A DNA stretch of 64,000 nucleotides. Origin: Yuukianura sp. NJ FZ-2021 (lineage: Eukaryota). Below the pieces are notes generated by a model. The model ran no database searches. It saw nothing but the letters and a program-made list of their open reading frames with translations, and was not told where the DNA came from. The stretch spans positions 12,400,001-12,464,000 of the forward strand of contig CM102290.1 in assembly GCA_046563655.1 (NCBI GenBank). The letters are read 5' to 3'. Positions 1,622 to 64,000 of the stretch are shown here, one piece after another. The position numbers and the translations under genes were made by a program. How positions within the stretch are numbered: the first letter of the stretch is position 1; each line of letters begins with the position of its first letter.

Positions 1622-4588
1622 TCAGAACTCAAAGGTGGAGCGAGAGAAGTGGATGGGATGAGAAGGAGAGCGAGCTAGGCGCTTCTTTGGAATCTTCTCT
1701 AGGCTCTTCACGAGGCGACCAAAGTCTGGACGATCTTCGGGTTTAGATGACCAACAAACCATCATGATCTCCTACAAAATCAATCAAAATAGGTTAGATG
1801 CAAATCAAACAGTTTGATTTTAGAGAAGTTAAGTTAGGTCGGAAATTGTCGTCTCACCTTTGCGTCCCTGGAAAAGAGTGTGGGCAGCGGCTGTCGTATG
1901 CCACTTCCGACTTGCCAAATGACAGCTTCAGGCGGAAGTTCTTTGTAGGGCCACTCTCCGCACAGAAGTTCGTACCATACAGTCCCAAAGGCATAAATAT
2001 CCGAGCCCTTAGAGAAAGGCAAGTCACTCTCAAGCTGCTGAGTGGGCGTCAAGCGGAGCATGAGCTCTGGAGCCAAGTAACACAGCCAACCAGGAGGAAT
2101 GCTCAGACAGTCACCCATGCTAACGTACAAGAAAGGTGGAATTAGTTTACCAACGTAACAGAAATTAGACTAAAATTATTGACATTACCTTCCACCATGG
2201 CACAGTTTAGTGACGCTGAAAAGCCCAAAGTCCGTGATTACAACTTTCCCACTTTCGATAAAAACGTTTTTGCTCTTCAAATCTTTGTGGATGATTCCTC
2301 GGGCATGGAGGTATCCCATTCCCTAGCAACAAAACAACAATAAGTTAGTGACAAGTTGGGAGTCATTTTTTTTTAAATTGTAAATTGTAAAAAGTTACCT
2401 GTGAAATCTGTTGTGCGATGAGAACAGTTTTGTTCATGTTGAACTTGTCACGTCTTAGGTGAAGGTGTGTGTAAAGAGAGAGGCCTTTGCACAGGGATGT
2501 TACGATTGCAAGTCGAGGTGGTTTCATGCAGGCACCCATAAACAATATGAGGTTCTCGTGCCGCGTTTTCCGAAAGATTGCCACTTCTTGCTTGAAATTA
2601 TCCAGAATCTTTCCGTTGTCCAAGTACTTTTGATCCAAAACTTTGACGGCGACATCTCCATGCCAGTTTCCTCGGTAAACTGTCCCAAAGTGCCCAACAC
2701 CAATGACTTCTTCAAGTTTTAACTCGTCGAACGGAATCTCCCACTCTCGATTTGACAACTACAAAAAGTTAAACCGCAGCATTAAGTCATATCTAAATAT
2801 ATGAATCCGGATAAAACTGTACAGTATTGGCCAAGTACAAGTACTGCCAAGCATATTATTGCTACTAGCAGCAAGTTCTGGACTTACGGAATTTTGTCTG
2901 GGGGAACTCCGATCCACTGCATCCAAGTCTGATTCTGATACTTGACTGTCTTGACTATCAACACGAAGTGCAATTGTCTTTTCAGAGTCGGGGCTACCGG
3001 AGCCCGAAGTCTGGGAAACGGTTCGGTCAGAATCATTTGAAGCCTGTGTGCTAATCATATCACTACTACCAACGGAATCAACCATACTCCTACCATCCGT
3101 TTGGAAATCTCCACCCATCGGAGTAACATCTAAAACGAAAAAAATAACAAAATAATTACAACAACCAACTAATCGATTACATAATATTTAACAAAGGCGT
3201 TCAAAGTTTAAATGTGACTGGGAACTTACCTGGAAAGCTAAATAACTGTGTTTGTGCGGATGCTGAGGCTGGAGTGGGAAGAGCAGCGGCAGCGGGGGCA
3301 GCAAAGAGTGCAGGGCTGGAGCGGGTGGAACTATTACAACTCGATGTATTGGAACTGGAATCAGGGCCCTAAGAAATGTTCAAACGAAATGAGATCTCTG
3401 ATCCTTATTCAAAATGATTGAAATTAAACACAATTTGGTGACAGTGGTCGCGTCATTTTGGCTTACCGGAAATTGTATTGAGATATTCTGAGGTGGACGC
3501 GTTACTTTTCGTAGACGACCCGTATTCAATGGAGAATTGCGATTTGACATCGGTGACTCCACGCCACCTGAAACCACATACATAGTATCAGTTAATTGAA
3601 TGCTTTGACTGTTTTCAAATGTTGCAGCGATTCAAAATCCTTACCTTCCTGCAAGGATTTAACAAAGACGTCGATCAATGCGGCTGGAAGACCACAACTG
3701 GGTGGGACTTTAGGTTCGCAGTCTCGATGGCACTTGAATTTGCATTCTTTGCACTTGACGCCGTAGATCATTTGCTTGAAGCAGTAGTCACAGGTAGCAA
3801 CTTTGAATATCTTGGAGAAACGGTGAGATATCATGTGACCCATGGATCGAGCCACGGTGGGGGTTCTAGGTGACCGTGGAACCTGCAGAGTCGTACCTGG
3901 AAAACGATTAAGGTTCGAAATCAACCAATCAGTATTCCTGTAAACTGTTGAACGAATTCTTAAAAAATGTAAAGTTAACTCACCTCTATGAGACGCATCA
4001 ACATCGTCAATTTCAGAGTGGGCATTGGAAAGTGGTGATTTGACTGGACTTGACGATAACGAAGATCCCCCTCCAAAATCTGCAAATGACGACATACTGG
4101 CCGTTGCATCCCAGGCTGAAGTTGAGCTAACCCCAATGCCTGAATCTGGTGCTCGATGATCTCGACGTCTCATGTCGTGTCCCGCACTGGTGCCTGAATG
4201 CGTATTGACAAATGGTGACTTGACAGGACTGGAAGTGAGGGACGAACCCCCAAACTCTGCAAAGGATGACATGCTGGATGAAGTGTCCCATGTCGAAGTT
4301 CTAACTGCAACTATTGAAGCGAGTCCAGGCTCTGTTGGCAGGCGCTCCCGACGTTTCGGTGCTAGCTGCTCCAAGCTACACAACAAAACCAAATCACAGC
4401 TTAATTTAAGCTCGTTAATCTTAGTAGTCTTATTCTAAATATACTTTCTAAGCTAGTACTTAGCAGTACCTGATTGCCCGCGTCCACTTGTTTGATCTGC
4501 TGTCTTGATAATCCATTATCGAAAACTTGTTTATACAGACTGGTGGCATTTTCCCATTTCTCTTGCATAGTGGACTGTCCTTCACCAT
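1622..4588 (-). CDS. ksr: Kinase suppressor of Ras (KSR2-like) scaffold/pseudokinase, multi-exon
   Basis: C1 zinc finger ([44 protein letters not shown]), Ser-rich [12 protein letters not shown] segment, FSFP ERK-docking motif (~3230-3243), Raf-like kinase domain ([66 protein letters not shown]) and KSR-type tail [16 protein letters not shown]; stop at 1622-1624. Start at 4588 inferred from splice phase and an upstream in-frame stop; 5' end less certain than the identity. Confidence 0.92.
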
Positions 4589-7085
4589 TTGTTCCGTCTA
4601 ATACGGCTAATGAGTATCCTTGGAAGCCATGTACTACCTTAAGTACTTCTTGTCAATCGTACTTGCAAAATTGTACGCCGAAGATCTCCAAAGGTCAAGG
4701 ATGAGGTAATGGCGAAGCAGTTTGAAGGCAGAGATGTGGTAGTGCCCTATTCCAACGTTCGACTGCACTTTCTCCAAAACATACTGGCTAGTTAGGTACA
4801 ACGACAATTGAATGGTCAACAGCGAACTTCTAATTGACAAGATGATTAAAAATTGGTTGAGTAAAACCCACTTCAATTTACAAACTTCAGTCCAGTCACC
4901 AAATCCTTTGGGCTGGAACTGAATTTTAACATATGAGGAAATGGAATCCAGGAATTTAGTATGCAGCTATGGGCATCACAATAAAAAACACTCAAAAGAA
5001 TCATGTTTTGTTTTAACTTTCTTATTTCTGGGAGAGTAACGTACGTAAACGCAAGGTGATTATTCTTAACAAACTGACCATAATCAGACAGGTCGTGACC
5101 TTTACGTTAAATTTCAACTTCAAACGTTTCGTTTACGATGCCCATGTTGTTACATGGAGAACGGACATTGACTGGATGTATTTTCGTGGAATTGTCAAAG
5201 GGCAAAAGACGAAGTTGAGGAGAAAATAACCTCCCGCGCCGAGCTCCCTTTCACTGGCTTTCTAATATTCCGTTGCAAAGAGGTGTTGTTTACTCCATGT
5301 TTGTTTACATAAACGATTTTTAACACAAACCCGAACACCAATTTTAACATAAACGCGTTTTCGGACAATGGTTTTCGATGTAATGAGGTGAAGTCTTACG
5401 TTTTGTTAAACATGTTTTCCGATTCAATGAAGCTTAGTATTAAGTTTTTTTTAAAGAGGTCATCCATACTTGTAAAATACTTAAGCTTTAAGTATAAGTT
5501 GCACTACTACCTACTTGTTTATTCATTTCAAGTACGATACTGCAGGTAGTTGCTAGAAATAACTCAATTGGTTCCATTTATCGGTTTTAGTACTGACGGA
5601 TTTTATTAAAAACCAAGTAAATAAGCCATTTCCGTCTTAAGTTATCTTAGCGTCTTTGGTTTTTTTAAAAGTTTTTTTTTCAGTTTTGCATTCTGAGAGT
5701 GATAAAAAACGAAACTTTAGAAAATGGTATTTACCAGACGGAATTTCGATCCGTCCGAATGCGGAACCTAACCCTGTCAGTGTTGGCTCTTGTGTCTGTC
5801 GACTTTTGGAATTCTACGGGGAGTTGCATGGAATTTGAAGTGACTCTGCTCCGCTATGGGGCTGTTCCTGGAAGGTCGACGAGTAATTGAACTTTTCATT
5901 TGGAGAAAGGACTTTGGGAAACCGGAGAAAGTCTTACATGGAAAATGAATTACTGGGAAAGCATTAGACACAGAGGATAGGAAAACATAGCATGTACAAA
6001 GTGTACGCAGCATTCCTCGTCATATGTTGCTTCATTTGACCTCGGCGTGTCCCTTGACCTTTGGCTTTTAGTATGTTTACTTAGCCTTATGTTTACTATG
6101 CTCCTTTGTTCTGTTCTCCATCATGGCCATAATCTGACCTGTCATTTGTCATTTCTTTTGCAAATGTAATAAATCTTTGTTGGATTTGTTGAAAGATCAA
6201 TGTCAAAATGAGCCTGACGACTCAATGTCGCCGTTCAATAAAACCATGCCTTTTTTGTTACGCTGCTGAACGTCTATTTTAACATTCATGTTCCAGTTAG
6301 CCAATTAATGTCCGTCCAGAAAACATAAACAAAAGAGACGAAATTGAGAAGCTCTTGGATGAAAAGATTGTGAAAAATATTAAAGTACGTGGTGTAATGG
6401 CGGAATTTTTTTTAGACAAACAGAACGGGTTGACAAGCGTAGTAAAGCCCTTGGGTGGCCTCAGCAATAATGATTTTTATAGCATTTGTAAATGTTTACA
6501 GAGTTTTGCACAGAAAATCTTCAGTATAATTGCAACATTTGCGAATTTTGTTTTTTGAAAATGACAAATCATCATTTCCCGAATTTAAGTAGTAGACATA
6601 AACAACGCTGTGATGATATGTAGCAGTGGATTTAAATTCACGCTGGAAATGTGGTGCCTTTCAGCTTACCTCAGTTAATAATTTCAAATAAAAATAAAAC
6701 TAATAATTTTCGAAAATGTCAAACACATTCGAAAATTTTAAAATTTAAAGGTCACATAGGGCTACATGATTTTTTTCTTCTATGAAATAAATTGAAAATA
6801 ATATTTAATGTTGAGTGGAAAAAAAATAGTTTTAATGTTCGGTATCCCCATAATTTTTTTTGAGGTTTCGTATTAGGTTGAAGTGAAAAAATTTGTCAGT
6901 GGAAATTTGCTAATTAGTAATTCAGAGCGTGCGGATTCTTTTTAAAACTCATGCGAACTTTAATTACTGCGGTTTAATTTATTTTGTTCCTTGATTCGCC
7001 TCCATAATGAAATCGCGCTTAGAATCACATTAGTTTATCACATCACAAAGCGTCACTCAAAACCTTAAAACTTTGCACAATTACA

Positions 7086-9899
7086 ATGATTTCGATTTCT
7101 GTTTTTCTAAGTTTTTTTCTGATTACATTTTCGTCACGTGCCGGTGCTAAAATTCATATAAATGTAAGACAGTTAATTCTGAAATATTAAAATTTGAACG
7201 AAAAATTAAATTTTAAGTTAATTTTGAAATATTAAAATTTGTAACGAAAAATTAAATTTTAAGTTCATTTTGAAATTATTAAAATTTGAACGAAAAATTT
7301 AATGTAACATTACCTTTTTTTTTATAAAAAGGAAACAGATTTCATTCTAATTGGAAATAAAACAAACTTGGAAATTTTGAATCTAAAGCCTCAACAGCAC
7401 AGAGTCAACGGAGAATGTACTTTGATCAACGCCAAATTCGAATTTGTACAGTTGCGCAGAAGTGACATAATGGAGTTTCTGAGCAACTGTTATAATCTGA
7501 CCTCTTTGAAATTGAACAACGTGACCTGGGAGTACAGCAAAGGTCAAAAGCTTCCACGCATTCATCTTCCCGCCCTGAAAATTTTTCAATTTGAACCAAT
7601 CATTGACGGAACAGCGACATGGACAGACTCCGACATAATCTCCGCAGTTTTCTTCTATACAAACAGCACTGGAGATCAGACAGGCTTGGAACCGTTGCAA
7701 GATTTACATGTGCTGATGTCTATTAAACTTGGACGAGATGGCTACCTGAAGATTGAAGACAAAACGTTAATGGTCAACAGAGTCCGGAACCAAAAAATGT
7801 GGACCATGCTGTACAAGATTTGGACAAAATTTGACAAATTTCTATCAGAACGGAGTGTGCTGGACGTTACTATGCTAAATCTGGAATCAATGAAGCAAAT
7901 CACATCAAAATGGGACCATCTTGGAGACGGCACCATGGCACAACTAATCACGTCGGCCAAGACTGCCGAAACTATGACACTCTATTCCTGGGAAGACGAA
8001 GCCATCGACATGTCTCTTCTTCCAGCCAAGTCCCTGGTCAAACTTGAAGTGAAGGATTTGAGTTTCCGCTGGACATCACATGACCCCACAGGTCACGTAT
8101 TTCCAAATTTGGTAATACTGGACATATCCTATGGCGATATTGACGTTAAACTCTTTACGGCTCCAAAGCTCGAAGTTTTCTACATCGATAATTCATACCT
8201 ATGGAACTGCAGTATGACCGACATTTTCAAAACAATGCCAAAGATAACATCTTTCTTCTTTGGCTGCCAATTTTTTGAAGGAACTTGTCCTGTACTGGAT
8301 TTGAACATTTTTTCAAACACGTCTGTGAACTACTTCGGCACCGAAAATGTAGCATTACATGGAAATAATGTGACTAATCCTCTGAAATCTCTGGAAACGT
8401 TGGACCTACTTCAGGCTCAGGTTGACGAATCCGTTTTTCAGAGGTTTAGTGAAATCTTTCCGAATGTGTGGGACGTTGGAGTGGAAATTGAGGACGCCAT
8501 TTCTGGATCCTTTCTGCAAGACATTGTCAATACAAATATAACTTTACTGTATGTTCACATTCACCCCGCAACACGCCAGCACATTATTGCCAAGTTTATT
8601 CATTTGGTCGAAACGCACATGAGCGTCACCCTTTTGCCGAACGTATTGGAAGGCGTAAAGTACATCACTTTCAATAGATCTCGTGTTGGATCTGCATTTA
8701 GCGACTTTATCTACAAGGAAGGAAACATTGACCAGCGCTGGTCGTACAAGGAACGACGAATTGACGATTTGCTGCGAGAACATGGATTTTCCAAGCAAGA
8801 TTTAACACAGGAAGTGCTCGACAGGATATATTACACATATACTATATTCGTTTTTACCGTATGTTCTCTCGGTATTCCATGCAACTGCTTAAGCATTCTC
8901 GTGCTCATGCGCAGATCCATGCGTAGCTCAACGAGTTATCTCCTGCTGTGCTTGGCTACGAGTGACTTGCTCTACTTACTCACGTCGCTTTCAACGGCTG
9001 AAGAATTTCGTAATCTGTTCAGAATTAAACTTCAACGGTCGCTGTTCAACGGATACTTTGCATATCCACTCAACATCACAAGTAAGATCAATTTTTCAAA
9101 AAATTTGAAGTTTGCTTTCACTTTTTGAAAGAAAATTTTCAATTTTACTTTTATTTTATTTTTTCAGTGTACACCGCTTCCGTGTACATGACAGTTCTGA
9201 TCACTCTAGAAAGATTTGTTGCCATTTCGAAACCGCTGCAAGTATCGTTAATTTTCACTGTGAAAAAAACCGTGCGCTACGCCATGCTCGTTTTTGCGTT
9301 TTCCATTTTCGTCAACGTGACACGGTGGCTGGAATTTGTAAAATGGGACTATGAAGCGTCATCCCCACTTTGGAGTTCCCATTACCCGCGTCAACTACAC
9401 AGATTCCCGGAATATCAACTTTTTTACCAACAAGTTATCTGGAATGTCTTCATTTATGCAGTTCCGCTCGTTGCAATTGCAATCCTCAACCTCATGATCA
9501 TTTCAGAAGTATCTAAACAAAATAATTTTTGATTGCAATTTTTTAAAATTATTTTTCACGCTAATTTTTTTGTTCATTGTTTAGGTAAAAAAATCGGTTA
9601 AAATGAGACGTACAAACACCGCCGTTTCACAGCAGCAGCAACCGCAAGACAATTCTCTGACCAGGATGTTGCTGATGGTTGTATTCATCTTCTTTGTGTG
9701 CAACTCTTCCAGTGCAACCATCCACTGGATTTTTACTTCCAAAGAAATTGAGCCAGAGGTCACTGAAGCATTTGCTTGTTTGCCAATCCTTGTCAACTGT
9801 TCAGTCAACTTTATCCTGTACTACTTCATGGGCACGAAGTTTCGAAAAGAGTTCAAGGTCATGTGGAGGTCAACATTCAAATGTTTTAACGGAAAATAA
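7086..9899 (+). CDS. Class A GPCR, FMRFamide-receptor-like 7TM, with signal peptide and ~480-aa LRR-like ectodomain (about 827 aa)
   Basis: Exons 7086-7163, 7332-9081, 9168-9508, 9585-9899 join in frame with GT-AG sites. N-terminus MISISVFLSFFLITFSSRAGA looks like a signal peptide. 7TM motifs: GIPCNCLSILVL, LATSDLLYL, YTASVYMTVLITLERFVAI, YAVPLVAIAILN, NCSVNFILYYFMGTKFR. Confidence 0.85.
7173..7300. repeat. ~45-bp AT-rich tandem repeat, about 3 copies, in GPCR intron 1
   Basis: ttaattytgaaatattaaaatttgaacgaaaaattaaattttaag repeated with small indels. Confidence 0.8.
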
Positions 9900-10512
9900 G
9901 GATTCCACTTTGGTAATCTTTAGTAACTTTAGTGATGGATTTAATTTGTAAATCAAGATTGATAGTTCAACTGGTTCATGGAACCTAAGGTATTAATTAA
10001 ATAGCAGTTCCTATGTAATTGCACAGTGCAGCAGCACTTGGTTACAACGGATGCAACTTTGCGTTACGTCAACCTTTAAATACCACTGTTATACATTCAA
10101 AATGTTTTTTTTAACATTCAAATGTGTAAAAATGTGTAAAATGTGCAAATGTGTAAAAACATACAAAATGTTTTTTTTTTTTTGGATAATGTCCACATGT
10201 ACTACATCAGCTGTTGAGAATCCTTACTTTTTAGGGAACAATCCCAACCCAACGTTAAATCAATTGATGAACAAATCACCAGATATTTTGGTGCTGGATG
10301 TCAGATCCAAGTTCGGCATTTATAGCATTAGAACCAGCACGGGTCGTAAATCAAAGGAAGTCCGGACCGCTGTCGTGGTGGTGACACTCTGACACTGTAA
10401 CAAAAAGTAAACTCATTAATAAATTGGCTAATGTAAGATTATCGCTTAATTTCTTCAATTATTGCAATTTTTGAAAATCTTTCAGACTTGTCGTTCTTTC
10501 ACGTAATTCAAC

Positions 10513-12949: not shown

Positions 12950-15900
12950 TTATTTGTTTTGGACTTTCACTGCAGCAGTTTTCTTGGCTTTGGCCTTGGT
13001 AGCCACTTTACGTTTTTTAGAAGGCGGTCCCTTCAAGCGCAATTTGTATGGCTGCAAAGTTCCTTTGCGCTCCACCGGTTCAGCGTTTCCGTCCCCCTCA
13101 ACATGAAGTGCACAGTTCCAAGTCCCCTTCGGCGTAGCAGTGAGATCGACGCAGTGGAGGTGGTACGCTTTAGCGCAACCATCGAACTCACACATGAGCA
13201 GCTCTCCACGCATCCCGCAAGTGGCACACTCGTCTTCCCATTTAGCTTCATGTACATGGTACTCCTGACTTCCCTTCTTATTTCCAGCGGGCTAAAAGAT
13301 AAAAAAAAATAGTGTTCCAGTATCAAGTTGGAATAAGTACATTATAAGTTGGCGATGGCACTAATAAACTTACGACCAGATTCTCCTCATTTTCACGACG
13401 ACGTCCAATGACTCCCTTGCAGTTAACAGCTCGACAAAAGCAGTTGAACGAAAAAGTGGACTTGGTTCCATAATTGTAGTCGAAAGTCAGTTCCTCTCCA
13501 GCTTCGATGTCTCTCTTGGCAAAGATTCCAACGACACGTTTCCCTTGAGCACTGTCGTACTTTACAATTCGGCAGTTTGGATCACATGAGTGATTGATCA
13601 GTCTTCCTATGTTTCCATAATACTCGGCATCAATGAAAGTGGAGGAATCAATCTCCAAGAAATACAACGGATCATCATCTGCTTTTCTTTGAACCTGCAA
13701 TCAAGAAAAGTATGATCGAATTACGCTTTGAAACGAAAATACTTTTATAATTACAAATACTAAACAGTGTTCTTACTCTCCACATCACTTCGTCCTTGGA
13801 GATTACTTCCCCGATATACTCGCAGAGATAAGTCCCTTCGGTAAATGCAGCCATAGCCTTAAGTCCCCACCCCTTCGTGGACGGAGAGACGAAAGTTTCC
13901 AAGAGATGTTCCTTGTTCTGCTTCAACGTGAACATCCTATTCTCGCATTTGTCGTTTCCAGAGCAATTGGTCGCATTGCACTCCACGGCAGCGTCCCTGC
14001 ACGCAAAAAACAATCGGCATTATGAAAGTACACGGTCGAGTGGATGGAATATGGCGGTTGCAGCATATTTTTGTACTGCGCTAAGCGCTATACTTACCGG
14101 TTGAAGCAACCTGAGTTTGGAGTACATTTGGGAGCATCGTCCTCTTTATCTGTACCACAGACACATCGCTCTTCATCTTCGTCATCATTCTTACGCTTCC
14201 CCCCATTCTTCTTTGCGCCATTCCGATTAACAGCACTCATGTGAACCCGGTACAAATTTCTATCAATCTTCTTGAAGATTGGCTCCGGCTAATAAAAATT
14301 AACCACTCAATTATCACAATTATGTACAAAACTTAAACATGAATAGAAGGAAAACTGCATGATTCGTCTGCAAGTTACAAACTGCAACTTATTCAATACA
14401 AATAGTCATACCTTGGGCAATAGCTTGTTTCTATTCTCTTCCGAATACTTGAGAAGCTGGTATGCCTCCTTAGCTGCCTCCCCAACCTTGTCGTTACTGA
14501 ACAAGTTCAATTTCTAAAAACAAAAGAAAAACGATTTTTGAATGCTCAAATCCAAAGATTTGTTTTTGTATTTGAAAAATAATGATGCTACTTACCTTCA
14601 AAAAGTCTTTATTTCCAATCTCAAGCGGGAGCGAGTCTCCAGTACGGCCATTGTCGTAGAACTGGATCGGATAGCCGCAGTAGCCGACAGAAAATTGTCC
14701 ATCTTTGGTAGCTCCACGAGCAGCTCCATCTTTCGGGTACAAGATCATAGAGGGCCAGTAGCTACAAAGTCAGAAAAAAATGCAATTTAAAAAACCTTAA
14801 ATCTAGTTAACTTTAGTTAAAAAGTTTGTATATGATTACATGGATCCTGGTTGCTGAAACCACACGACTTGTCCATAACGAGGAAACATTCCCCACAAAC
14901 AGGCTTCGCACTTGAAAGTTTTCTGCAACTCTTCAAGTGAAATACCTGCCTTCAAATGAAACTCTCCATGAACACAAGTGGCGTGGAAAGAAAGTGGGCA
15001 GAGACTGCAATTCACCACGACATCGTTGGACTTGAGTTCTAAAACAGAAATAACATAAGCAACCGTATGAAAGCCAAAGTAGTTAACATTATTACAACTT
15101 ATTTACTTACTTGAGCTGCAGGTGAAGCACCCCAATCGCTTATTCTTCCTGGCCGGTGCCTTATCCCTGGCATGTCTTGGACAGATCAAAAACTGGTTCT
15201 TCATAATGTTGTTGCCGGTTCCAGCAGGAATGCAAGAGGCTAAAAACATAGACAAACAGGAATGAAAATGACGGAATAAAATAAAAAAAAATCAAAGATT
15301 AAATGAAGAACATACGCTTATGGTATGCTGAGAGGCAGTAGAGGCAGCGAATAGCTTTGGAAGGTTGAAGACGGTAATCGCGAACAATGGCGGAGTGAAG
15401 ATGCTCTGCCTTGCAGCCATGACAGAAATGAAGTGGGCAAGTGATGAGTCCATTGGATCCGATCACATCCGCCTGTGGCCAATTGAACACAAGACAGTCA
15501 CGGTGGAACCGAAGATCGCATTTCGGAATTGAGCACTTTGCGGGCACTCCAAATACTTCAGAGTCTCCCTTCTTGCAGATGAAACAGACTTGTGCAATAC
15601 AGTCGTCGCACTTGAACTTCGTGAGAACATTTTCATGTCCATCCACATCTGTAACAACACAAAATGGTGTGACGATTTAGGAAAATAAAATAACAATCCA
15701 CTAAAATACTTGTGTATTTACCTGGCGATTGAGCAATTTGGACTTCTGACAAACACGACTTGTGGAACGGATAGTCATGACAAGTTGCCACTTCGGTTTC
15801 GTCTGTCATCTCCTCCTTACATTTCGCACAACATACGTAGGGCTTCGAGTCAAACTTCATTGCCTTGTCCATCAAATCGAATTTCTCCAATGTCCAAGTT

Positions 15901-19711: not shown

Positions 19712-22700
19712 ATGATCTCAGATTCTGGAGATCTAGCCACCACCACCCAGAGGTCAACGGGCAAAACAGGAAGACCAAAAAGTGCTACCGTCCCACCAAC
19801 CCACGAGGCCCACCACACACATCCATCGACCCATGTAAAATTTAACTGTTGTTTTAATTAATCAAACACTTTTAAATAGAAACTCAGTACACTCACAACC
19901 TAGAAATTTAAAAAACCGCTGTAAAGGCAATACTGAAGTAGCGACGGTGAACTTTAATACTGTAACCTCTCAATTTGTTCCAAAATTAGCACCTTAGCTT
20001 ACCACACAGATTCTCCTTTCAATTGTCCTACATTAATTTTAATTAAAGTTATCTTAATTAATGCTAAATATTGAATTAAACATTATTTTTGTATTTAATA
20101 ACTAATATGCTTATTAGCAGGTCCAGCCGAGAAAGGTAGCAAAAGTGAAGCCGAATCCTAGAAACGTGGAACACTCCGTTCCCAATCCAGGTTCAGAAGG
20201 TCAAGAACAGTCAGTAGATGGAGGGTCAGCCTCACTTCAACCGAATGTTACCGAACGCACAACCGCTCCTCCCAGCCGAACTTCAACCAATCCCGTGTCC
20301 CCATTTTCCGAGTCAGCTACCAACACCGAATGTAACCAGCTCATCCGACAACTATGGAACCTCAGAGACGAACTGGTGGAATTCCATCTCAAGGCTTCAA
20401 CCGTCTTGACCTTGGCTAGAAAACAGCTCAGATTGGTGCAAAAGCAAAACGAGGTCAAAAGGTCACAGGTTATCTCCAGCTCCAAGCTACTTCCTCAGAG
20501 TCCTGTTGAACTAACTCCGCTTGATCCATCACTTTCGGACAAAGTGGAATCTAGTCTCGCGTTTCTGATTGGTTTAGACCAGACGCCCAATCAAGAATTT
20601 CCCGCGTCGCTGAATTTCTTCATTCTTGGTCTTCAGAATCTCATGGACGCTTTTGTTCGAAACGACGAGCAGTTTCATGGTCTCCCGGCTGCTGCTGTAC
20701 AGTGCAGACCTGTGTTATACACAAAGGTTAACACAATTCAAAGGTCAATGACCTTTGACCTTTAGAGGAAGAAAACTAACAATTTATTACAACTTGTATT
20801 AATTTTAGGTACTACATGCTCGAAAGTACGTCGTTCATGACTATTTCTCAATTCTTCACTGTATTCATCAACTCATCGCTACAATCGTTCACCTTCTGGC
20901 CACATCTATGGCCATCACTGGTCCAATTTTAAATGACAATTTTTTGGCGGTCTGTCATTTCACGGAAGTCTATAACATTTCACTCGAGGCTGCTCTGTGG
21001 CGACCTCGCGACGAGGTCAAAGGTCAGGCAGAGCAAGGTCAACAAGGATCCTTGACCTCCAACAAAGATAAGGGAAAAATTCAGATTTTGCAGAGATTAT
21101 TTGGAGCCATGCAGAACGACGCGCCGTGGTTGCGCATGAGTCTAAAGCCTTTATCAGCAACAAAGTTGCTCACTTTCTACCTCCAGAAACGAATTCAGCC
21201 AGTGTCTACAGCATTTATTGAAGCTCTGCAGCTCAGTTTTCAGAAACAAGGCGTAACTAGTGACCAGCCAATCACAGCAGAGTTCCGATCGGATCTTCTG
21301 GAAACTTGTTTACAAGCAGAGGAGACGCGGCTACTTCAATTCCTGGCTGGGCTGTTGGAGACGCCTTCTCTACTGGGAAAACCCGCTGTGCAGAACAAGT
21401 CCATCAAGCGTCTGCGCAGAACGCTTGTGCACTACTTCTACGATAGGCTTTTGGCATGCGTCGGAGAAGCGGCAAAGGAAATGCTTCTTTGGGGCCGACC
21501 GAATCCGCTTGCACTCGAATCCACGTCGAGCGGAACGCAGCAGAAGTATATGCTGGGTCTAGCCATTGCCGCACAAATCACAGGTCGAAATTTTAACAAT
21601 TTTTGGTTGACTTTTTTTTTTTTTTCAAAATTTTGAATTCTTTTTGTTTCAGGTGGCAGCAAGGTGTCAGAATTCCTACCTGTCATGGCGTCAGTGAGCA
21701 AAGCACTTCGTTCTTTTACGCTTTTCTTTACGTGGGACCAGCAAATCCAAGGTGCCTTTGAAATTGCAACGAAACTCAAGCGTCCGGAACAAACGCAGCT
21801 CCTGCCGAGCATTGACCCTGCACAGTGGGCGACCACTATTGGTCAGCACTTTGCACACATTCTTACCACTGTGCTGTTACTCATGGACGGCCAGTCTCCG
21901 TCGAATCCTGATCAGGCTCAGTCAGAAATCATAGCCCCTCACTCCAACCAATTCAACTTGAGTGACGAAGAATTGCTGGCAGAGGAAGCACAAATGCTGT
22001 TTCGGTTTGACGCAACTTTCTTCTACTTTGTGGCTTGGGTCACGAAAAGAAGCAAGTCGTGGCTCAATAGCTGGGCACTGCCGCAGTTCCTCGCAGCGTC
22101 ACAGAGGGACACACACCATCTCTGGCTACTCATCAACTCACGTCAGGTTAGGGTTAACTTGTACTCGGTCACCTAATGAGTAGGGATGTCAAACATATTT
22201 ATAGTCTCCATGCCCGTAATGTTAACAAAAGATATTTTGTCTGACCACTGAAGGTCCATGTGACCTTGACCTAACGTGACCCCAAGATGATCACTGATCC
22301 AAAATCTAAATATTTTCAGACAATACTCATCACACGTGACATTCTACTCAACAGCAAAAGCACTTCGGTTTGCTTAGCTGCTAAACAGCGACAACTTTGT
22401 GCCGACGATTTACGCAGTACCGTAGATCTCCTGCACGTAAGTTGTGCAATTTTTTCAATTTGAAAAAAAAATCGCCGACTTAAACAAAATTTGAGCTTTT
22501 TATAGAGTAAAAATTTTATAGAGTAGATTTGAATTTTTTTAAACAGGGGTTGCCAAAAGAGGCTCTGGAAGACGTTGGTCCGATTTGTCTGACTTTGAGT
22601 CTAGCCACTTTGAGGTCATGCATGCCACAGCCCAAGCACTGGGAGGGCGTTGGCCCAGGATGTGGCCTTGACCCGGACAATCCGTCACCTTATGTTCAGA

Positions 22701-23946
22701 CCTTCATCGGTAAGACTTGTAACCTGCTCCTTGACCTTTGACCTTCAATTTGACCTTGACCTCTTGTAGGCCGTGTCATTGAACCCGCAATAGAAGCATC
22801 AGTCCAGTATGTGAGTGCCACAGTCCAGGAGGCCATTGGAAAAGAAGTTGTTCACGCAGCCTCAGATGCTTGGCTCCAGTACATTCTCCAGCGAAAAATC
22901 AGATTCAGGCAAGGTTGCTATACCAACGAAATAGTTTTCCCTTAACAGGTTCGGCAATAAGTCCTGTTTTCGAAAAATCTTGAGTATAGATATTTTTCTA
23001 CCTTATTTCTACGTTTTTTGTTTTTTTTTCTACCTTTTACTCCTTTTCTACTTTGAATTTGCCAATTCAAAAGCCATCTCTCCGAATTTTTTAATTCCGT
23101 TTACAATACCAACCGCGATTGAAACTAGGTGAATTCAGTTTTGAAAATTTTTCGCAAAAAACTTAAACTCGAGTTATTGTCTAACCTGTTAAAGAAAAAG
23201 TATTTCTTTGTTTATCCACCTTGGATTCTGGTATAACCTACATAAAAAACTTCAAAAAACTTCTCACAAAACAAAAAAGAATTTTAAGAACTTTCAAAAC
23301 AAAGTTTTATGAAAAAACTTTGTGGGTGATTTATTATTAAAAAAAACTTTCTATTTTACTGCCAACAGTGAGTGGGGTGCTGTTCAGCTTCTGCGTGACT
23401 TTACGGCTCTACGTGAATGGATACGAGATCAAAATTCGTTAGCTCCGGAGGCGCGAAAAGCCATTTTGGAACTGGAAATTTTAAAGTGCTGTGAAGGCGT
23501 CGGATTCTTGCTTCTGCGTAGTCCCGGGGACATTCTGGGTGTTGGGAAAGCAGTGGAGCGGCGTCGACGCCACTCCCCATCTCCCGGTAGTAAGTTTTCA
23601 AAATTTTGAAAAGAAACAATTTTCGCGCGGAAGACGCGAGTTCCCTAATACCACTCTTAAGATTGATCGATGCTACCACTTCATTCTGGCCTCTTGACAC
23701 AGAAAATGGCCTTTGATTGATGACAGTTGTCATGACACAAAGCAGAAATGATTTGAAATTAGTTTCTCTTTGTACAAAAAGATCAACGGCCATGTTTTGT
23801 TTCCAGCGTCGTCACAAGAAGCATCTCCATCACTGTCAGCCTCTGTGACCCAGGACGACATTCCACCAGAAATGTACGTCTCTAACCAGCAAATGTGGCT
23901 CCAGCTCCGTCTTCGACCAAGGACACTCCCATTCTACTGCTGCTGA
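19712..23946 (+). CDS. CCDC142: Coiled-coil domain-containing protein 142-like, multi-exon
   Basis: Spliced C-terminal region reads PSPYVQTFIGRVIEPAI...DAWLQYILQRKIRFSEWGAVQLLRDFTALREWI...CEGVGFLLLRSPGD...IPPEMYVSNQQMWLQLR, resembling CCDC142 as recalled. Exons include 19712-19834, 20121-20726, 22770-22908, 23369-23586 and a last exon ending at stop 23944-23946. Start codon uncertain. Confidence 0.75.
22910..23223. mobile_element. CAAGGTT-terminal MITE, subfamily C, inserted on a CCDC142 splice donor
   Basis: Termini caaggttg...caccttg, subterminal ttaacaggtt/aacctgttaa, 8-bp TSD gattcagg (22902-22909) / gattctgg (23224-23231). Confidence 0.85.
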
Positions 23947-55900: not shown

Positions 55901-58137
55901 CAGAATGGGATTTTTTATACGAAAATTGTTTACTTTTTCCAAATTATGAACAACTTTAATTTTAAACTTCAAGAACCATAAAAAAAGTTGATAATTGTCT
56001 TCAGAAATGCTTTTTTTCTTGTTAACTTGGATCAAGAAATATTTTTTACGTAACCTCAATTTTTCGGTTATCGATATCAATTTTCCATGCCCAAAATGGA
56101 ACGAAAAATTCGTCAAACCCGGATTCCATGTTTCTGAAATCCGGATTTGGAAGAATCCGAATCCGTAGAAAATCCGGATTTATCCGGAACAAGAATCCGC
56201 ATCACCACCCCTATTAGTGTCCTGTAAGCTAAAACTTAATTGCAGATCCTGGGTCTCATGGTGGCCTGTCTGTGTCATGACCTTGACCACCGCGGGACAA
56301 ACAACGCCTTCCAGCAACTCACTGCCTCTCCGCTGGCCGTCCTCTACTCCACGTCCACCATGGAGCACCACCACTTCGATCAGTGTGTCATGATCTTGTC
56401 CTCGGAAGGCAACAACATATTCCAGGTCAACCACAGTTTTTAAAACACGCATACACGTTTCTTGAAAAAAAAAATTCTAATTCAAACGAAATTTCTAAAA
56501 CAATTTGATTCAAAAATTTCAAAACAGCATACATATTCTTTCGTTCTTCGCATTTTTTTCAAGATTTTTGAAGTTTGACCTTGTGAACTTTGTATTTCCA
56601 GGATCTTTCTGCCGACAACTACCGACGTGTGATGAAAATTGTCGAGAGATCTATCCTGTCCACTGATCTAGCAATGTACTTTCGAAAAAAAGACAGATTC
56701 ATTGAACTGATTGAAAACGGGGAGATTGCGTGGCAGGGTGACGACAAGAAAGATCGTAAGACCAAATATTTCTCTATCACATTTCAAATTAAGTAATTGT
56801 TTTTACCTCGAATCAAATAATAATAATAGAATAAGGTTAGTGTAATAGTAAAAATTTGGCGCTTTGGTTTTGAAATTTCGAGGTCACTGAGGTCATCTGA
56901 GCAGAGAATGTTTTGTCCTTAAGCGAATCTGGTCTCCCAAGCTTATTTCTTTGTGTTTGTTTAGTACTCTGCGGAATGATGATGACTGCCTGTGATGTGG
57001 CGGCCATTTCCAAACCGTGGGAAATTCAACACAAAATTGCCAAGCTGGTGGCAGACGAGTTTTTTGACCAGGGAGACCTCGAGAAGGAGCAGCTCAACCA
57101 ACAGCCTGTGGTAAAACACATAACTTATTCATACCATATTGTGTCCGGGATACGGAATTTTTCAAAAATTCGGAATTTCTGAAATCACTTCCAAAAAAAA
57201 AGTTCAGTGAAACAAAGTATAAGGGATTCCATTTTCTGGAACTCATTTCCATTTCGAATAGCTTAAGATTTCTGTTTGAAAACAATCTTTTTGGACCTAG
57301 AAGGTCAAAGGTCAAAATGAAAATTGACTAAAACATTTCATCAACTCTTAGGCTATGATGGACCGTGAAAAGAAAGACGAACTACCCAAAATGCAGCTTA
57401 GCTTCATCGATGTCATTTGCCTTCCACTTTACAAAGTAAGTTCAAAGTTGACCTTTGACCTTTAAGCTTAACATTTCAAAAATGTACTTTTCTACAGACA
57501 CTGTCAGATACTTTTCCTTGGCTGAAACCGCTGCTTAGTGGCTGCATAGCCAATCGAAATAATTGGCAAGACTTGGCCGAGAAAGTTGACATGGGGCTAA
57601 CATGGATTGACCACGACGTTATCGAGAACCCTGTTGAAGAATTCTCTCGTAAGCATTAAAAATTTCTGAAATTTTGAAATTTCTGAACTGAAATTTCAAA
57701 AATTCAAAGTTTGGAATTTGAATTTTAACTTCGCAGGAGATTCAGAGCCACAAGACGTAAATTTCGTAGTGACGACACTGAACTGCAGTAGTAGTGATCC
57801 AGAAAAGAGCTTCGATTCGGAAATTGTGCGCCGGTCACGTTCAAAATGGAAACTGCGGAAACTTTTCCGCGAAGGAGGTGGTCACCTACACAAATCGCAA
57901 TCTGCGTCGTCGCAGTCCAAGACACCGTCAGACCCCTCTTCAACGCCCGTCCAACTCAGTCACCAAACGCCGCAGAAGAGCTATGACGAAGTTGACAAAG
58001 GGCCAGCCGACTCCCACGCATGCCCACCACCCAGCCAAAACAAATTTAACTTTGACGAAGAGAGTACCTTGAGACGAGGCAGTACTACTACTGGCAGTAG
58101 TCCAGCTTCTGCCAAACAGAAATGTACAATTTCCTAG
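46925..58137 (+). CDS. Pde6: cGMP-specific 3',5'-cyclic phosphodiesterase (invertebrate PDE6 / PDE5-like), two GAF domains, C-terminal CaaX; ~19 exons
   Basis: N-terminal [15 protein letters not shown] and [17 protein letters not shown] ([40 protein letters not shown]); GAF-B ([24 protein letters not shown]); catalytic [58 protein letters not shown]; ends KQKCTIS*. First coding exon 46925-47675, last 57737-58137. Confidence 0.93.
47870..48141. mobile_element. CAAGGTT-terminal MITE, subfamily B, intronic in PDE
   Basis: B sequence; 9-bp TSD gtcctaaag/gtccttaag. Confidence 0.88.
49405..49750. repeat. Intronic element built from GGTTCAA/TTGAACC motifs in inverted arrangement
   Basis: ggttcaa/gttcaaa motifs in the left part, many ttgaacc/tcgaacc motifs in the right part; ends not defined. 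Confidence 0.5.
50544..50850. mobile_element. CAAGGTT-terminal MITE, subfamily A, nested in an older inverted-repeat element (~50487-50940)
   Basis: A termini intact; flanks tggacggctatttatgagcca and tggttcataaaagccatcca are inverted repeats of each other. Confidence 0.85.
51805..52043. mobile_element. CAAGGTT-terminal MITE, subfamily D, opposite orientation
   Basis: Reverse-complement similarity to 38685-38973; left TIR degenerate (ctacgttg); TSD gtatcagc/gtaacaac. Confidence 0.75.
53390..53750. repeat. Degenerate ~15-bp tandem array (ctagttgatgcaatt) in a PDE intron
   Basis: Many gttgatgcaattcta-like units. Confidence 0.8.
55820..56213. mobile_element. hAT-like MITE with AATCCGGATT palindromic subterminal repeats
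   Basis: TIR taggagtg...caccccta; 8-bp TSD ttaatgac/ttagtgtc; multiple atccggat motifs at both ends. Confidence 0.75.
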
Positions 58138-60098: not shown

Positions 60099-61614
60099 AT
60101 GGGACTCCGGGATTTGTACTACTACACTTGGTCGCCGGAATCGAGTAGAACAGCTAGCGAGGGAACGATGAACGACAGCGGCGTATCTGCTGCATTGCCG
60201 GACGGCACACACAACGAGAGCTACTGGACCTGGCCAATACCCGGACGACGAACGCTTTGCTGGCTACTGGTTCTGTTCTTTGTCGTTTTTCTGGCTCTTG
60301 TTTGCTCGATAGCTTTCACACCGTCTTCGACATCCACAGAAAAACCAAGGGCAACTCAATCAAATACTTTGACAGCAGGTAATATAATGCGTATTACAGT
60401 ACTGTATTATTGTAATTGAGAGTATAAAACTAAAAGTTCATTTGGTCATTTGGCAGGTCACGCTCTGGTCATCGATGAACCGAAAGATAAAGGTACAACG
60501 GTAAACCACCAACAGGCTTTGACGGACATAGCGAACGGCACTAACGAAGTACTTCTACCGAAGGATATTTTGGAAGAATTTAACAGAAATCCAGAACATG
60601 GTAATTATTCAATCCTGCCAATTGCGGTGTATTTGATTTGGAATATCGATTGACATACGTTTTTCCTTTCTCGAGGTTGTGGAGCCGGTGATGCGCTGTT
60701 TAATTGCCACGAACCAGGGTAAGGATTTTGGCACTCCGTTTAAATCGTGTTTACTCGTTTAATTATGTTTGAACAACTTCTTTTCATTAAATTGAAAATT
60801 TAGTATGTTTGCTTTCACGTTGCTCTTCGCCTATAAAATGTGACTTTAGTTCTCACAAATCGAAAATGTTAATTCGTTTTTCTTCTAAAATTTCAGTGAA
60901 GCTGCTCCGAAATGTATTCCTTTCTACCTCGTCTGTAATGGAAAAATCGATTGTCCGACAGCCAGAGACGAGGCAGCATGCATTACGCTCTCTACCAACG
61001 CTTCATTTTTATCAATTGGCGCTGACTCTATGTAAGTCATCAAGTGAATGCTTGATTTTCATCAATCAAGTTATCAACCTCAACCATGCGCTTAATTTAA
61101 AATTCTGATTCGGCTTAACTTACCCGCCCTCCGCCGTGGGGGAATATCTTATAAATTCCATTTCATCTTCATTGCACTGTTTCAATCAATTGTGTAACAG
61201 CCTTAGTATTTGAGCCACCATCCCCATTCAAATTTAATTGTTCCGATGCAAATAGTAATTTCATAAACTTTTTGTTATTACAGGCCCAGTATGATCAACA
61301 ACCAACGAGGCGAAGGCTACGTGTTAGTTCGTATTAACGGAGTCTGGCATCCGTACTGCAGCAATGATTGGACCACAGCCCTGTTGGAAGGAATTTGTGA
61401 CCTGCTGGGATTCTCCACAGTGGCTCATGAGATACGTCAAACTTTGACGCAATTCAATTCGGAACAGACGAATAAGGAAGTCACTGCATCTCCGCTCCTT
61501 GTTCTAAGATCTGCTGACTCTACCGAGCCGACTAAGGTGATCCACACCAATGAGCAAGCAGTAGGGAATTTTGGGTGGAGTGGCTGTGAAGTCCTGTTTT
61601 TGAAGTGTCGCTGA
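60099..61614 (+). CDS. Type II membrane protein with one LDLa repeat and an SRCR-like domain, no protease domain
   Basis: Five exons (approx. 60099-60378, 60457-60600, 60676-60718, 60897-61031, 61284-61614) in frame. TM LCWLLVLFFVVFLALVCSIAF; LDLa CGAGDALFNCHEPGEAAPKCIPFYLVCNGKIDCPTARDEAAC; SRCR-like GYVLVRINGVWHPYCSNDW...ICDLLGF...CEVLFLKC*. Confidence 0.8.
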
Positions 61615-62050
61615 TTAAGCGGCAGAACATGAATGGACATGACTTGAGCCTTGTTCCTTACATTCACATTTTCTTCTTTATTTTCTTCAGATTAATGTAT
61701 TAGGAATAGTGAGTCAAGAGGTTGGAGGTCAAAGGTGAGACCCTGCTGACGCGTCTAGAATGAGTAATTAGGTTTGTGGTTGTGTTGATTGACGCCTCCT
61801 TTGTTTTAGAGTAGGGTAAATAGTAAATGGTAAGGATGAACTCTGGATATGTCCCAATGTTTGGTTAGTTCTAGGAATGGAAGGCATAAATAAACCTAAA
61901 GGCATAGTTCCTACTTGCATGATTCTCAGAACAGACACCGTACAGATTGACAGTGATTGATAAAGTAGCGACTAACTTTCATATCTCAAGTCCATTCTAA
62001 CCAGCGAAGTTAATATTAGTAGTACAAGCTCATTTTTCCATTTTGCAGTC

Positions 62051-64000
62051 ATGACAACGGTTCTAAGGGTCAACGGCATTGTCAAGTTCCTCTTGACCTT
62101 GGCAACTTTTCAGGTACTGCTGGACTGTACGCTGGTGTGCGTGGCTGCTCGAAGACGCCGTGTGCCCAGGCAACAGAGTTTGCCTCCTGTGCTGGTCGAA
62201 ACGAGAGGCATTTGTGGGAAAGTGCCGCGAATTCAAATTCATGACGCCATCAAATCACAAGCAACAGTGACTCCATTTGGACAAGTTCCTTGGCAGGTAG
62301 GTCAGAGGTCAACTATGACATAAAAAATTAAAATTCATGTTTAGTTTTTTTTGTTTTTTGTTTTTTTTTTGGAAAATAGGTTGGTATATTTTATGGCCAG
62401 CATAACGAGTCGTTTCTCTGTGCTGGGACATTGATTAGCAGAATTCACGTTTTGACGGCCGCCATTTGTCTCGTTTCGGTTCAAAGTAGTGAGGATCTGC
62501 GTCTGCGTCTTGGTGACTGGGACATTTCGGACCATGATTCTAATTTTGAAGCCTACCAAGCTTTTCATACAACGGCGAAGAAAGTTATAATTTTGCAAGG
62601 TAAGCATATTCGTTTTTGTTTTTCAGATTTTAGAATTTGACTTTTTCGTTAAAATTATATTTCCAGACAATTTTTTTTGCAGGCGATGAACCAATGCGAC
62701 CGTCTTTGAATGCAGTGGCACTCTTGACCCTAAATGAAGCAGTTGACTTTGACCTGTATCCGCAGGTCAGGCCAATTTGTCTTCCAGAAGTCACTTCTTT
62801 GCAAAACGAAACCAAAAACAAGAAAGAAGAGGTCGTCGAAAACTGCTTTACGTCAGGATGGGGTTACCAAGATCCATCGGTGAGCAAACGAGAACAAAAT
62901 ATTGCCGGTATTTATAACCTGTCAAGCATTCCTGACTAATTTAGCATTTTGATTCACAATTATAGGTTGCCGAACCTCCCCAAAACGTGACTTTCAAATC
63001 AAAATTGGACAAACACGATGAAGCCGTGACATACCAAAGCGTGGACAGCGTCAAAAGTCAAGAACCTTTGGACAAGAACGTCACAGACGCTGTTCTTCCG
63101 AGATCGCTGAGCAGTTCCCAGGAAAAACCCACTTCGCCCATACTTATTTTAGTGCCACTGGTTCTGGATGAACAGGAAGAAAAAAACTACCGAATGGTGG
63201 ACCCTGTTCAGGAAGAGCGAATTCCCGACTACTTCACTGCCAATATGCCGGTCAGTATTGATCCAGTATTCAACGCGGATTTGGATTTACTCCCATTGAC
63301 CAACCATGACTCATGGGAACTCGCACCTTACACTGCCGTTACAAATGCAGACGGCATTCCCGAAGAGTGAGAAAATTTAAAACTGAAAAAAATAACGCTG
63401 GACAGTTTTCAAAAAAAAATATTTTTTTTCAAGTCATTTCTATTTCTATTTTCTAGGAATCATGAAACTGCGGTGGAAAATTCAACGCAGTTCCACGTTT
63501 TGCATCGAGCCATGTTTCGTCACAAGGAAAAGTACAAGAGTGGAAAAGACTTTCTGCGCAGGAAATTTAGTCTGGACGCAGCCTCAATAGAAGAATCTAA
63601 TCCTGCAATAGTAAAAGAAGACATTTTACTGGACAAACGAAACCAGGGACAAGAAAAGTCCAATGTCAATACAACATTGGCTCAAACAACATCAACAACC
63701 GGAAGCCCTCAGGCACTTTCTGCCTTCCCAATGCCAGTTCCACCGCAGAATGTGCATAAACAGAGCCTGTCGCTTCTTAAGGCAGCATCGGTGTCACTCC
63801 AGCGATCTTGTGCTGCCATCCCGGAAGTCGAGAAAGGTGAAGCTACGGTTGGAAAGGCTTGTATTGTTCCAACCAATCCGGAGTATCGCTCTCTTTGCAT
63901 GGTACTTCAACTTCAACATAGCAACAGTTCTTTTCAAAACTTAATTTCTAATTTTGTTTCTAAATAGGTCAACCTGGGGTCACCAGTGACCTGCAAGGGT
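62051..64000 (+). CDS. Secreted serine-protease homolog (trypsin fold, inactive; masquerade/PPAF-like), 3' end beyond the window
   Basis: Exons 62051-62296, 62380-62599, 62683-62879, 62966-63366, 63457-63901, 63968->64000. Hydrophobic N-terminus, ICG, FGQVPWQV, FLCAGTLIS, LTAAIC, RLGDWD, NAVALL, VRPICLP, CFTSGWG, VNLGSPVTC. Confidence 0.85.

Follow-up and report, generated by a model that had tools for sequence, protein, structure and literature searches.

The 64,000-nucleotide stretch of the Yuukianura sp. NJ FZ-2021 assembly analysed here (GenBank GCA_046563655.1, contig CM102290.1, forward-strand positions 12,400,001 to 12,464,000; this whole stretch is called the window, and position 1 is its first letter) carries at 7086–9899 on the plus strand an intact gene predicted to encode a cell-surface receptor. 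With a probability of roughly 0.7, we regard this as a functional gene of an invertebrate animal encoding a G-protein-coupled receptor (GPCR) with leucine-rich repeats (LRRs) that arose separately from the LGR family (LRR-containing GPCRs) and that is composed of a signal peptide, a glycosylated LRR ectodomain of the cap-less kind, a hinge, and a seven-transmembrane (7TM) class A core resembling the Srw and FMRFamide receptors. The predicted solenoid comprises approximately 465 residues in about 17 turns and the hinge approximately 30 residues. The original prediction, made from the DNA letters, had proposed an LRR-like ectodomain fused to an FMRFamide-receptor-type 7TM core and had suggested that this LRR-GPCR was assembled independently.

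The gene consists of four exons, and all three introns read GT..AG in the sequence. The spliced coding sequence (CDS) of 2484 nt corresponds to 827 codons and a stop codon and contains no internal stop, in agreement with the intact four-exon open reading frame (ORF) that had been proposed. The following features were assigned, in which TM denotes a transmembrane helix and ICL and ECL denote intracellular and extracellular loops:

Exon 1, 7086–7163, plus strand: start codon and 26 codons (MISISVFLSFFLITFSSRAGAKIHIN), phase 0, followed by a GT donor
Intron 1, 7164–7331, plus strand: 168 nt, GT..AG, containing a 46-nt tandem repeat at 7171–7303
Exon 2, 7332–9081, plus strand: 1750 nt, ending in phase 1 after ..YPLNIT; ectodomain and TM1–TM2
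Exon 2, first part, 7332–8723, plus strand: predicted LRR solenoid ectodomain, exon 2 residues 1–464, approximately 17–18 turns, with sequons
Exon 2, hinge from the LRRs to TM1, 8724–8819, plus strand: residues 465–496, with a conserved pre-TM1 motif (alignment A5)
Exon 2, last part, 8820–9081, plus strand: TM1, ICL1 (MRSSTS), TM2 with the conserved Asp, ECL1 and the start of TM3
Exon 3, 9168–9508, plus strand: TM3 (ERF replacing DRY), TM4, ECL2 (strongly conserved) and TM5 (Pro present)
Exon 4, 9585–9899, plus strand: ICL3, TM6 (FFVCNSSS, no Pro), TM7 (NCSVNFILYY), helix 8, a short tail and the TAA stop

Introns 2 and 3 are 86 and 76 nt long, respectively. The peptide encoded by exon 1 has a hydrophobic core and, judged by eye, resembles a signal peptide. 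The reading frame that contains exon 2 is free of stop codons over 606 codons (7308–9128), which is far beyond chance in DNA with a G+C content of 39.5%. Since the ectodomain and TM1–TM2 lie inside a single exon, which measures exactly the 1750 nt stated earlier, the fusion of the two parts is not an artefact of the gene model. The number of N-glycosylation sequons had to be corrected, as 10 N-x-S/T sites rather than nine were counted in the first 520 residues, one of which (N26-E-T) straddles the junction of exons 1 and 2. The ectodomain contains only five Cys residues and none between protein residue 345 and TM1. A second copy of the gene was not found within the 64-kb window by tblastn, and an Rfam scan of the window returned no match.

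DNA contigs of four sequencing runs from two studies cover the gene; one contig of 25.6 kb spans 7277–10075 and differs from the window by approximately 3%. In this comparison, for which 40 of the 233 differing places were listed, the 34 coding substitutions listed comprise 21 synonymous changes and 13 replacements, which are mostly conservative, and all 12 indels listed (12 of 17) lie in the 5′ and 3′ flanks (untranslated regions) or in introns 1 and 3. Due to the excess of synonymous changes and the location of the listed indels outside the coding sequence, the window gene shows a pattern of purifying selection.

The runs also contain several haplotypes at 6900–10100 that differ by approximately 3–4% from the window, so that the sample is highly heterozygous or pooled. 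Tandem Repeats Finder describes the intron 1 repeat at 7171–7303 with a period of 46, 2.9 copies and 93% matches, and 47, 106 or 123 nt of this region are absent from contigs of other runs, which indicates that the copy number of the repeat and the length of intron 1 differ between haplotypes. A 36-nt stretch of the 3′ flank (10039–10074) has matches, loose at either end, in several contigs of each of the four runs that are not otherwise related, and it resembles a short dispersed repeat.

At the level of the predicted fold, the ectodomain was confirmed to be an LRR solenoid. Structure prediction had been suggested as a check, and an AlphaFold2 (AF2) model built with an alignment of ten sequences (alignment A1) reached a predicted local distance difference test score (pLDDT) of 81.2 and a predicted template modelling score (pTM) of 0.74. 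In this model, short strands recur mostly every 20–26 residues over exon 2 residues 1–464, amounting to approximately 17–18 turns; these are followed by the hinge, with low confidence at residues 465–475 and a short helix at 477–483, and by long helices at 493–527 and 533–564. Foldseek retrieved 54 matches from the PDB at E ≤ 1e-3, headed by TIR1 (9.4e-6), COI1, D3, Roco-LRR, TLR2/8, internalin A and the ectodomains of LGR4/5. By VIA-align, the best match was the Legionella LRR protein 4q62 (Z 17.8, 314 residues aligned, root-mean-square deviation 4.5), and FBXL2 and FBXL17 (both Z 17.2) and SDS22 (Z 16.5) were further matches. A Foldseek-independent search of 48,161 chains gave the same picture with LRR-containing proteins in 50 of 50 rows, as was the case for each of the three structure-search lists, and TLR2/7/8/9 and plant LRR ectodomains were also among the fold matches. 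In Pfam, the relative P0010 passes the cutoff for LRR_At5g56370 (29.3 vs. 27 bits), and two further relatives match under the cutoff: P0005 to LRR_4 (3.5e-5, 24.3 bits) and P0019 to LRR_At5g56370 (22.9 bits). In the ESM Atlas, the best score for the ectodomain was 0.86, and LRR, FBXL and FNIP clusters appeared lower in the list. The domains LRRNT, LRRCT and LDLa were not matched in Pfam at E ≤ 1 by the window protein nor at E ≤ 0.1 by the ten members of the family described below. Together with the Cys-free hinge, this suggests a solenoid of the cap-less kind and agrees with the earlier remark that the Cys-rich caps and hinge of the LGR family are not evident in this protein. A solenoid without caps is unusual for an extracellular LRR domain of animals.

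The 7TM part is supported as a class A core of the Srw/FMRFamide-receptor-like group of peptide receptors by several sequence comparisons. Exon 3 alone exceeds the cutoff of 30.5 bits for Pfam 7tm_1 (PF00001) with a score of 34.6 (E 1.9e-8), and the relative P0022 matches it with 42.6 bits. Residues 507–554 of exon 2 align to positions 3–51 of Pfam Srw (PF10324), the TM1–2 and TM6–7 exons give weak matches to Srw, Srsx and Srx, and exon 4 is additionally matched weakly by 7tm_1. A Srw match was obtained for nine of the ten members (E ≤ 0.1), with P0005 (25.0) and P0017 (26.5) exceeding the cutoff of 22.2 on TM1–2 alone. Searching a collection of 5.8 billion proteins with a TM3–5 profile retrieved five proteins, four of which carry PF10324; one of the five is the family member P0022 and two are from the nematodes Panagrellus and Bursaphelenchus. 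The Srw group was tied to the myosuppressin and FMRFamide receptors by Thomas & Robertson (2008; PMC2576165, available text), and Srw-like genes occur across protostome phyla according to the available text of Krishnan et al. (2014; PMC3963977).

Profiles of the three 7TM segments were also compared with all PDB chains, yielding 32 chains for TM3–5 at E ≤ 0.01, 34 chains for TM6–7 and, for TM1–2, the best 60 of 106. The TM1–2 profile (A5) matched the TRH receptor at 3.1e-7 and NMUR1 at 1.5e-5; the TM3–5 profile (A3) matched neurotensin receptor 1 at 1.6e-7, followed by NMUR2, GPR139 and GHSR; and the TM6–7 profile (A4) matched the delta-opioid receptor at 2.1e-5, SSTR1 and NMUR1. As a single sequence, exon 3 found nothing in the PDB at E ≤ 0.01, although the family profile did, and in the ESM Atlas it fell into generic 7tm_1 clusters (0.93), which do not separate receptor subfamilies. 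The microswitches of class A receptors are N1.50, D2.50, (D/E)RY, CWxP, NPxxY and the disulfide between TM3 and ECL2. The family has kept the TM1 Asn (N1.50), the TM2 Asp (D2.50), ERF, the TM5 Pro (P5.50) and the TM7 N....Y, and the motifs ERFVAI, NCSVNFILY and VCNSSS quoted in the original prediction are all present in the window protein.

The window gene belongs to a family that had been missed earlier and that emerged from the paralogue search with about ten relatives. A HMMER scan of 1.84 billion representatives returned 14 matches, and the family was sorted from these together with locus L002 and P0022. About ten distinct sequences, including that of the window, combine an LRR-type ectodomain with TM1–2 (P0005/L001, P0006/L004, P0007, P0008/L005, L002, P0010, P0012, P0017 and P0022). 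P0009/L003, P0011 and P0014 are fragments, P0015, P0016 and P0018 are class A receptors with short N-termini, and P0013 was discarded as a spurious match. All seven clusters examined come from metagenome sources and bear no informative name. Most family ORFs stop just beyond a common exon boundary, ..YPLNKT|G. The TM3–5 and TM6–7 exons lie downstream in L001–L004, laid out as in the window gene, and L005 matches this layout only up to TM5; donor and acceptor positions and phases equal those of the window gene in all four loci checked. Upstream of the receptor in L005, a hydrophobic 26-codon signal-peptide exon (2927–3004) ends in N followed by GT, like exon 1 of the window gene, and no such exon was found upstream in L001 under the filter used for L005. 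Because of an in-frame stop in its LRR part and the deletion of the segment from ERF to TM4, the family member in L005 (3075–5096) is probably a pseudogene. Several paralogues of the receptor family occur in one sample. The members appear to form two groups, one window-like (P0005–P0009 and P0011) and one more distant with more regular LRRs (P0010, P0012, P0017 and P0022), a split read by eye from alignment A1. Judged from these sequences, the family is small, comprises several genes, has kept its exon structure and undergoes birth-and-death turnover. Word-index protein searches with exon 2 or alignment A1 returned nothing from a collection that contains family members, and these blanks therefore reflect the method rather than absence. 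An annotated full-length relative was not obtained from the protein libraries, whose coverage of eukaryotic gene models is uncertain. Among the short receptors, the fragment P0018 carries the family ICL1 motif (K-E-M-R-S-S-T-T) and resembles TM1–2 with an E-value of 9.3e-4; it may represent the kind of LRR-less receptor that gave rise to the core of the family.

Conservation is distributed unevenly along the protein. Compared with the window protein, the relatives show 20–31% identity in the LRR part, 41–61% in TM1–2, 49–60% in TM3–5 with 42 invariant columns (alignment A3), and 52–61% in TM6–7 (alignment A4). The LRR part changes at about twice the pace of the 7TM part. Two extracellular elements stand out by their conservation: the pre-TM1 segment with the consensus TRxxxLLRxxGISxxxxTQETLDWMY (alignment A5, five members) and ECL2 with the consensus KWxYEASSPxWSSxxPRQLHRYPxY, which contains many invariant columns (alignment A3). 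In the mechanism that we propose, the fast-evolving LRR surface would capture a macromolecular ligand (a protein, a peptide, or a molecule of microbial or environmental origin), and binding would be relayed through the conserved pre-TM1 hinge and the unusually conserved ECL2 into the erstwhile peptide-binding pocket. In the LGR receptors, the hinge and tethered elements relay ligand binding, and the relay proposed here would be comparable to this hinge or tethered-agonist activation. The core would then signal through a G protein, since N1.50, D2.50, the Arg of ERF, P5.50 and the TM7 N..Y are kept.

Several points weigh against the reading as a functional, separately arisen LRR-GPCR. A single-sequence AF2 run of the ectodomain reached a pLDDT of 32.7 and was uninformative, the confident model depends on ten sequences only, and the window protein itself stays below the Pfam cutoff for LRR_4 (18.3 vs. 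27 bits). The LRR-like ectodomain of the original prediction hence stands by the AF2 fold, the structure searches and the Pfam matches of relatives, but not by the window sequence alone. Similarly, the single-exon Srw scores of the window protein (18.3 for TM1–2 and 19.8 for TM6–7) both fall below the cutoff of 22.2, and a placement beside FMRFamide receptors rather than other peptide receptors would go beyond the Pfam and profile matches. The description as an FMRFamide-receptor-type core holds at the level of the Srw/peptide-receptor group, where the Pfam matches and the nearest proteins support it, and no finer. The splice junctions and the expression of the gene are predictions from the DNA, and the ligand class, for which the original prediction had suggested a large protein or a microbial molecule, the route of activation through hinge and ECL2, and the coupling to a G protein are points that we purely infer. 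Finally, the core lacks residues that class A receptors use for activation: in all five aligned members TM6 has neither the Trp nor the Pro of CWxP (FF[VI]CN, not closely followed by a Pro), as had been pointed out for the Pro, the Pro of NPxxY in TM7 is replaced (NFILY), and neither the top of TM3 nor ECL2 has a Cys for the usual disulfide. As a consequence of the missing Cys pair and the TM6 and TM7 residues, signalling may be atypical or absent.

The last of these points is the basis of the strongest alternative, an unlikely one, namely that the protein serves in recognition or adhesion at the surface, or as a decoy, and has lost GPCR signalling, the 7TM part acting only as a membrane anchor or scaffold. 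The replacements in TM6 and TM7, the missing Cys pair and the very short C-terminal tail would all fit this. However, the 7TM part is the best-conserved part of the protein (49–61% vs. 20–31% identity for the LRRs), and N1.50, D2.50, the Arg of ERF, P5.50 and the TM7 Tyr are invariant or nearly so. Moreover, the absence of the TM6 Pro from five out of five members marks it as a trait of the family and not as decay. The short-N-terminus relatives P0021, P0024 and P0025 have the NF..Y variant as well, and P0025 also lacks the TM6 Pro, so that these replacements belong to the wider receptor group rather than indicating decay of this family.

It is improbable, in our judgement, that the genes represent a chemoreceptor-like, lineage-specific Srw-type expansion in which small ligands bind the 7TM pocket and the LRR domain only assists, for instance in folding, trafficking, oligomerisation or contacts with a co-receptor. 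The available text of PMC2576165 presents Srw-type genes as rapidly duplicating and as candidate receptors of peptides from the environment, such genes are distributed across protostomes (PMC3963977, available text), and the paralogues in one sample together with the probable pseudogene would suit such an expansion. But the LRR domain is kept in both clades of the family with the same exon and is its variable part, as expected of a surface that determines specificity, and a near-invariant ECL2 sits uneasily with a pocket diversifying to accommodate different small ligands.

Very improbable is a third explanation, according to which the gene is no independent fusion at all and encodes an LGR that has diverged strongly, be it of the glycoprotein-hormone, bursicon, relaxin or R-spondin receptor type. 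The layout is the same, with an LRR ectodomain ahead of a class A 7TM core, and the structure searches retrieve the LGR4 and LGR5 ectodomains (Foldseek ranks 15, 18 and 24; rank 45 in the Foldseek-independent search), but LRR fold matches are uninformative on descent, and the closest LRR structures, FBXL2, FBXL17 and SDS22, are cap-less. LRRNT, LRRCT and LDLa have no Pfam match and the hinge is without Cys. In a test that is coarse and no phylogeny, LGR, FSHR, TSHR, LHCGR and RXFP chains were absent from the 32 chains matched by TM3–5, the 34 matched by TM6–7 and the best 60 of 106 for TM1–2, while peptide receptors reached 1e-7, in line with the earlier statement that the 7TM core differs from that of the LGRs. 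The weakest explanation, that the gene is a pseudogene or arose as an artefact of assembly or prediction, could invoke that the window gene is known from DNA alone and that L005 is disrupted, yet it is scarcely credible given a frame open over 827 codons with the fusion inside one exon, the same DNA in contigs of four runs from two studies, listed indels confined to non-coding DNA, the excess of synonymous changes, and an architecture repeated in about ten relatives. The proposal of an independently assembled LRR-GPCR is thereby supported: for the three points fixed in advance as able to overturn it and examined, at least coarsely, we found an ectodomain predicted as a solenoid, a non-LGR 7TM core, and no description of the architecture in print.

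The other genes recognised in the window are the following:

NSD-like histone methyltransferase, 13326–15676, minus strand: Pfam SET 4.9e-19, PHD_NSD 1.3e-8
CCDC142, 21637–23606, plus strand: Pfam 2e-11
Cyclic-nucleotide phosphodiesterase exon, 56901–57179, plus strand: Pfam 5.7e-13
SRCR and trypsin-like protease, 61267–62936, plus strand: Pfam

Moreover, kinase exons (PK_Tyr_Ser-Thr, 9.2e-20) and an exon for a C1 domain, which binds phorbol ester and diacylglycerol (DAG) (2.1e-8), are encoded on the minus strand ahead of the receptor gene (1837–4434), which suggests a Raf/KSR-like kinase gene. Judged by their domains, the neighbouring genes are all of animal type, and they have no obvious link to the receptor.

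Among known receptors, the LGR family (the glycoprotein-hormone, bursicon, relaxin and R-spondin receptors and GRL101) is closest in layout, as it also presents a class A 7TM core after a large LRR solenoid and a hinge, and in both cases the ectodomain probably captures a protein ligand and hinge and loops relay the signal. They differ in that the 7TM core of the LGRs belongs to another branch of class A, whereas that of the window family is peptide-receptor/Srw-like; in the LRRNT and LRRCT caps, the Cys-rich hinge and, in type C, the LDLa domains of the LGRs, which were not found in the window family; and in the LRRs of the window family, which are nearest to the cap-less FBXL and SDS22 kinds. 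In the available text of PMC3510462, which describes these features of the LGRs, they are the exception among rhodopsin-like GPCRs for their large LRR ectodomains. With the Srw/FMRFamide- and myosuppressin-receptor-like group (PF10324), the family shares the best Pfam match for TM1–2, the NF..Y variant of TM7, which is common to the window family and P0021, P0024 and P0025, and a birth-and-death evolution that resembles that of Srw (PMC2576165, as far as its available text describes it), but the relatives with short N-termini (P0018, P0021 and P0023–P0025) are without LRRs.

The vertebrate TRH, neurotensin-1, neuromedin-U and ghrelin (GHSR) receptors have short N-termini, a canonical CWxP and NPxxY, and the disulfide between TM3 and ECL2. 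They are the best relatives with solved structures, NMUR1/2 appearing in all three profile searches, but the similarity is remote with bit scores of 25–35. The adhesion GPCRs ADGRA2 and ADGRA3 (GPR124 and GPR125) carry N-terminal LRRs, a GAIN domain and a class B2 7TM part. They are thus another case in which LRRs were recruited to the ectodomain of a 7TM receptor, but their 7TM part is unrelated to the class A core of the window family. Toll-like receptors and plant LRR receptor kinases likewise use an LRR solenoid as a variable recognition surface, with a single-pass anchor and output through a TIR or kinase domain in place of the 7TM output of the window protein.

A description of a class A receptor outside the LGRs with an LRR ectodomain was not found in the literature. 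Under the term LRR-GPCR, the available parts of this literature deal with LGRs or trans-acting LRR proteins, and otherwise consist of LGR papers or general papers on GPCR repertoires. The main text of de Mendoza et al. (2014; PMC3971589), as available, does not mention a Srw-LRR architecture, and the supplementary architecture figures of that article might bear on the question; LRRs go unmentioned in papers on the Srw group, with 0 occurrences of 'LRR', 'leucine' or 'N-termin' in PMC3963977. The family is apparently undescribed, and it seems that the LRR-GPCR layout of the LGRs was reached convergently a second time. A more far-reaching reading, which we offer tentatively and consider possible but doubtful, is that, with the LGRs and ADGRA2/3 as the earlier two, an LRR-bearing GPCR would here have been invented independently for a third time, in a poorly sampled invertebrate lineage by joining a peptide-receptor core to a cap-less LRR domain of a usually intracellular kind. 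The family would then have expanded into fast-evolving recognition receptors, the GPCR counterpart of the Toll-like receptors, which would be activated by the conserved hinge acting on the near-invariant ECL2 as a tethered ligand.

If the reading as a separately arisen LRR-GPCR is true, the family would clearly exemplify convergent domain shuffling in receptors, in which the same layout was built from a different 7TM branch and a cap-less type of LRR, and it would provide a natural comparison for studying the coupling of such a bulky ectodomain to a class A core. This question can be approached by mutagenesis thanks to the conserved hinge and ECL2 and to the family-wide loss of the TM6 Pro. 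That the family is so far visible only in unannotated assemblies and metagenome contigs shows what standard annotation misses. The fast-evolving LRR surface and the turnover of genes hint at the recognition of variable partners such as microbes, food, mates or gametes, and the receptors would, if the reading is true, give LRR-based recognition in animals a new route of output.

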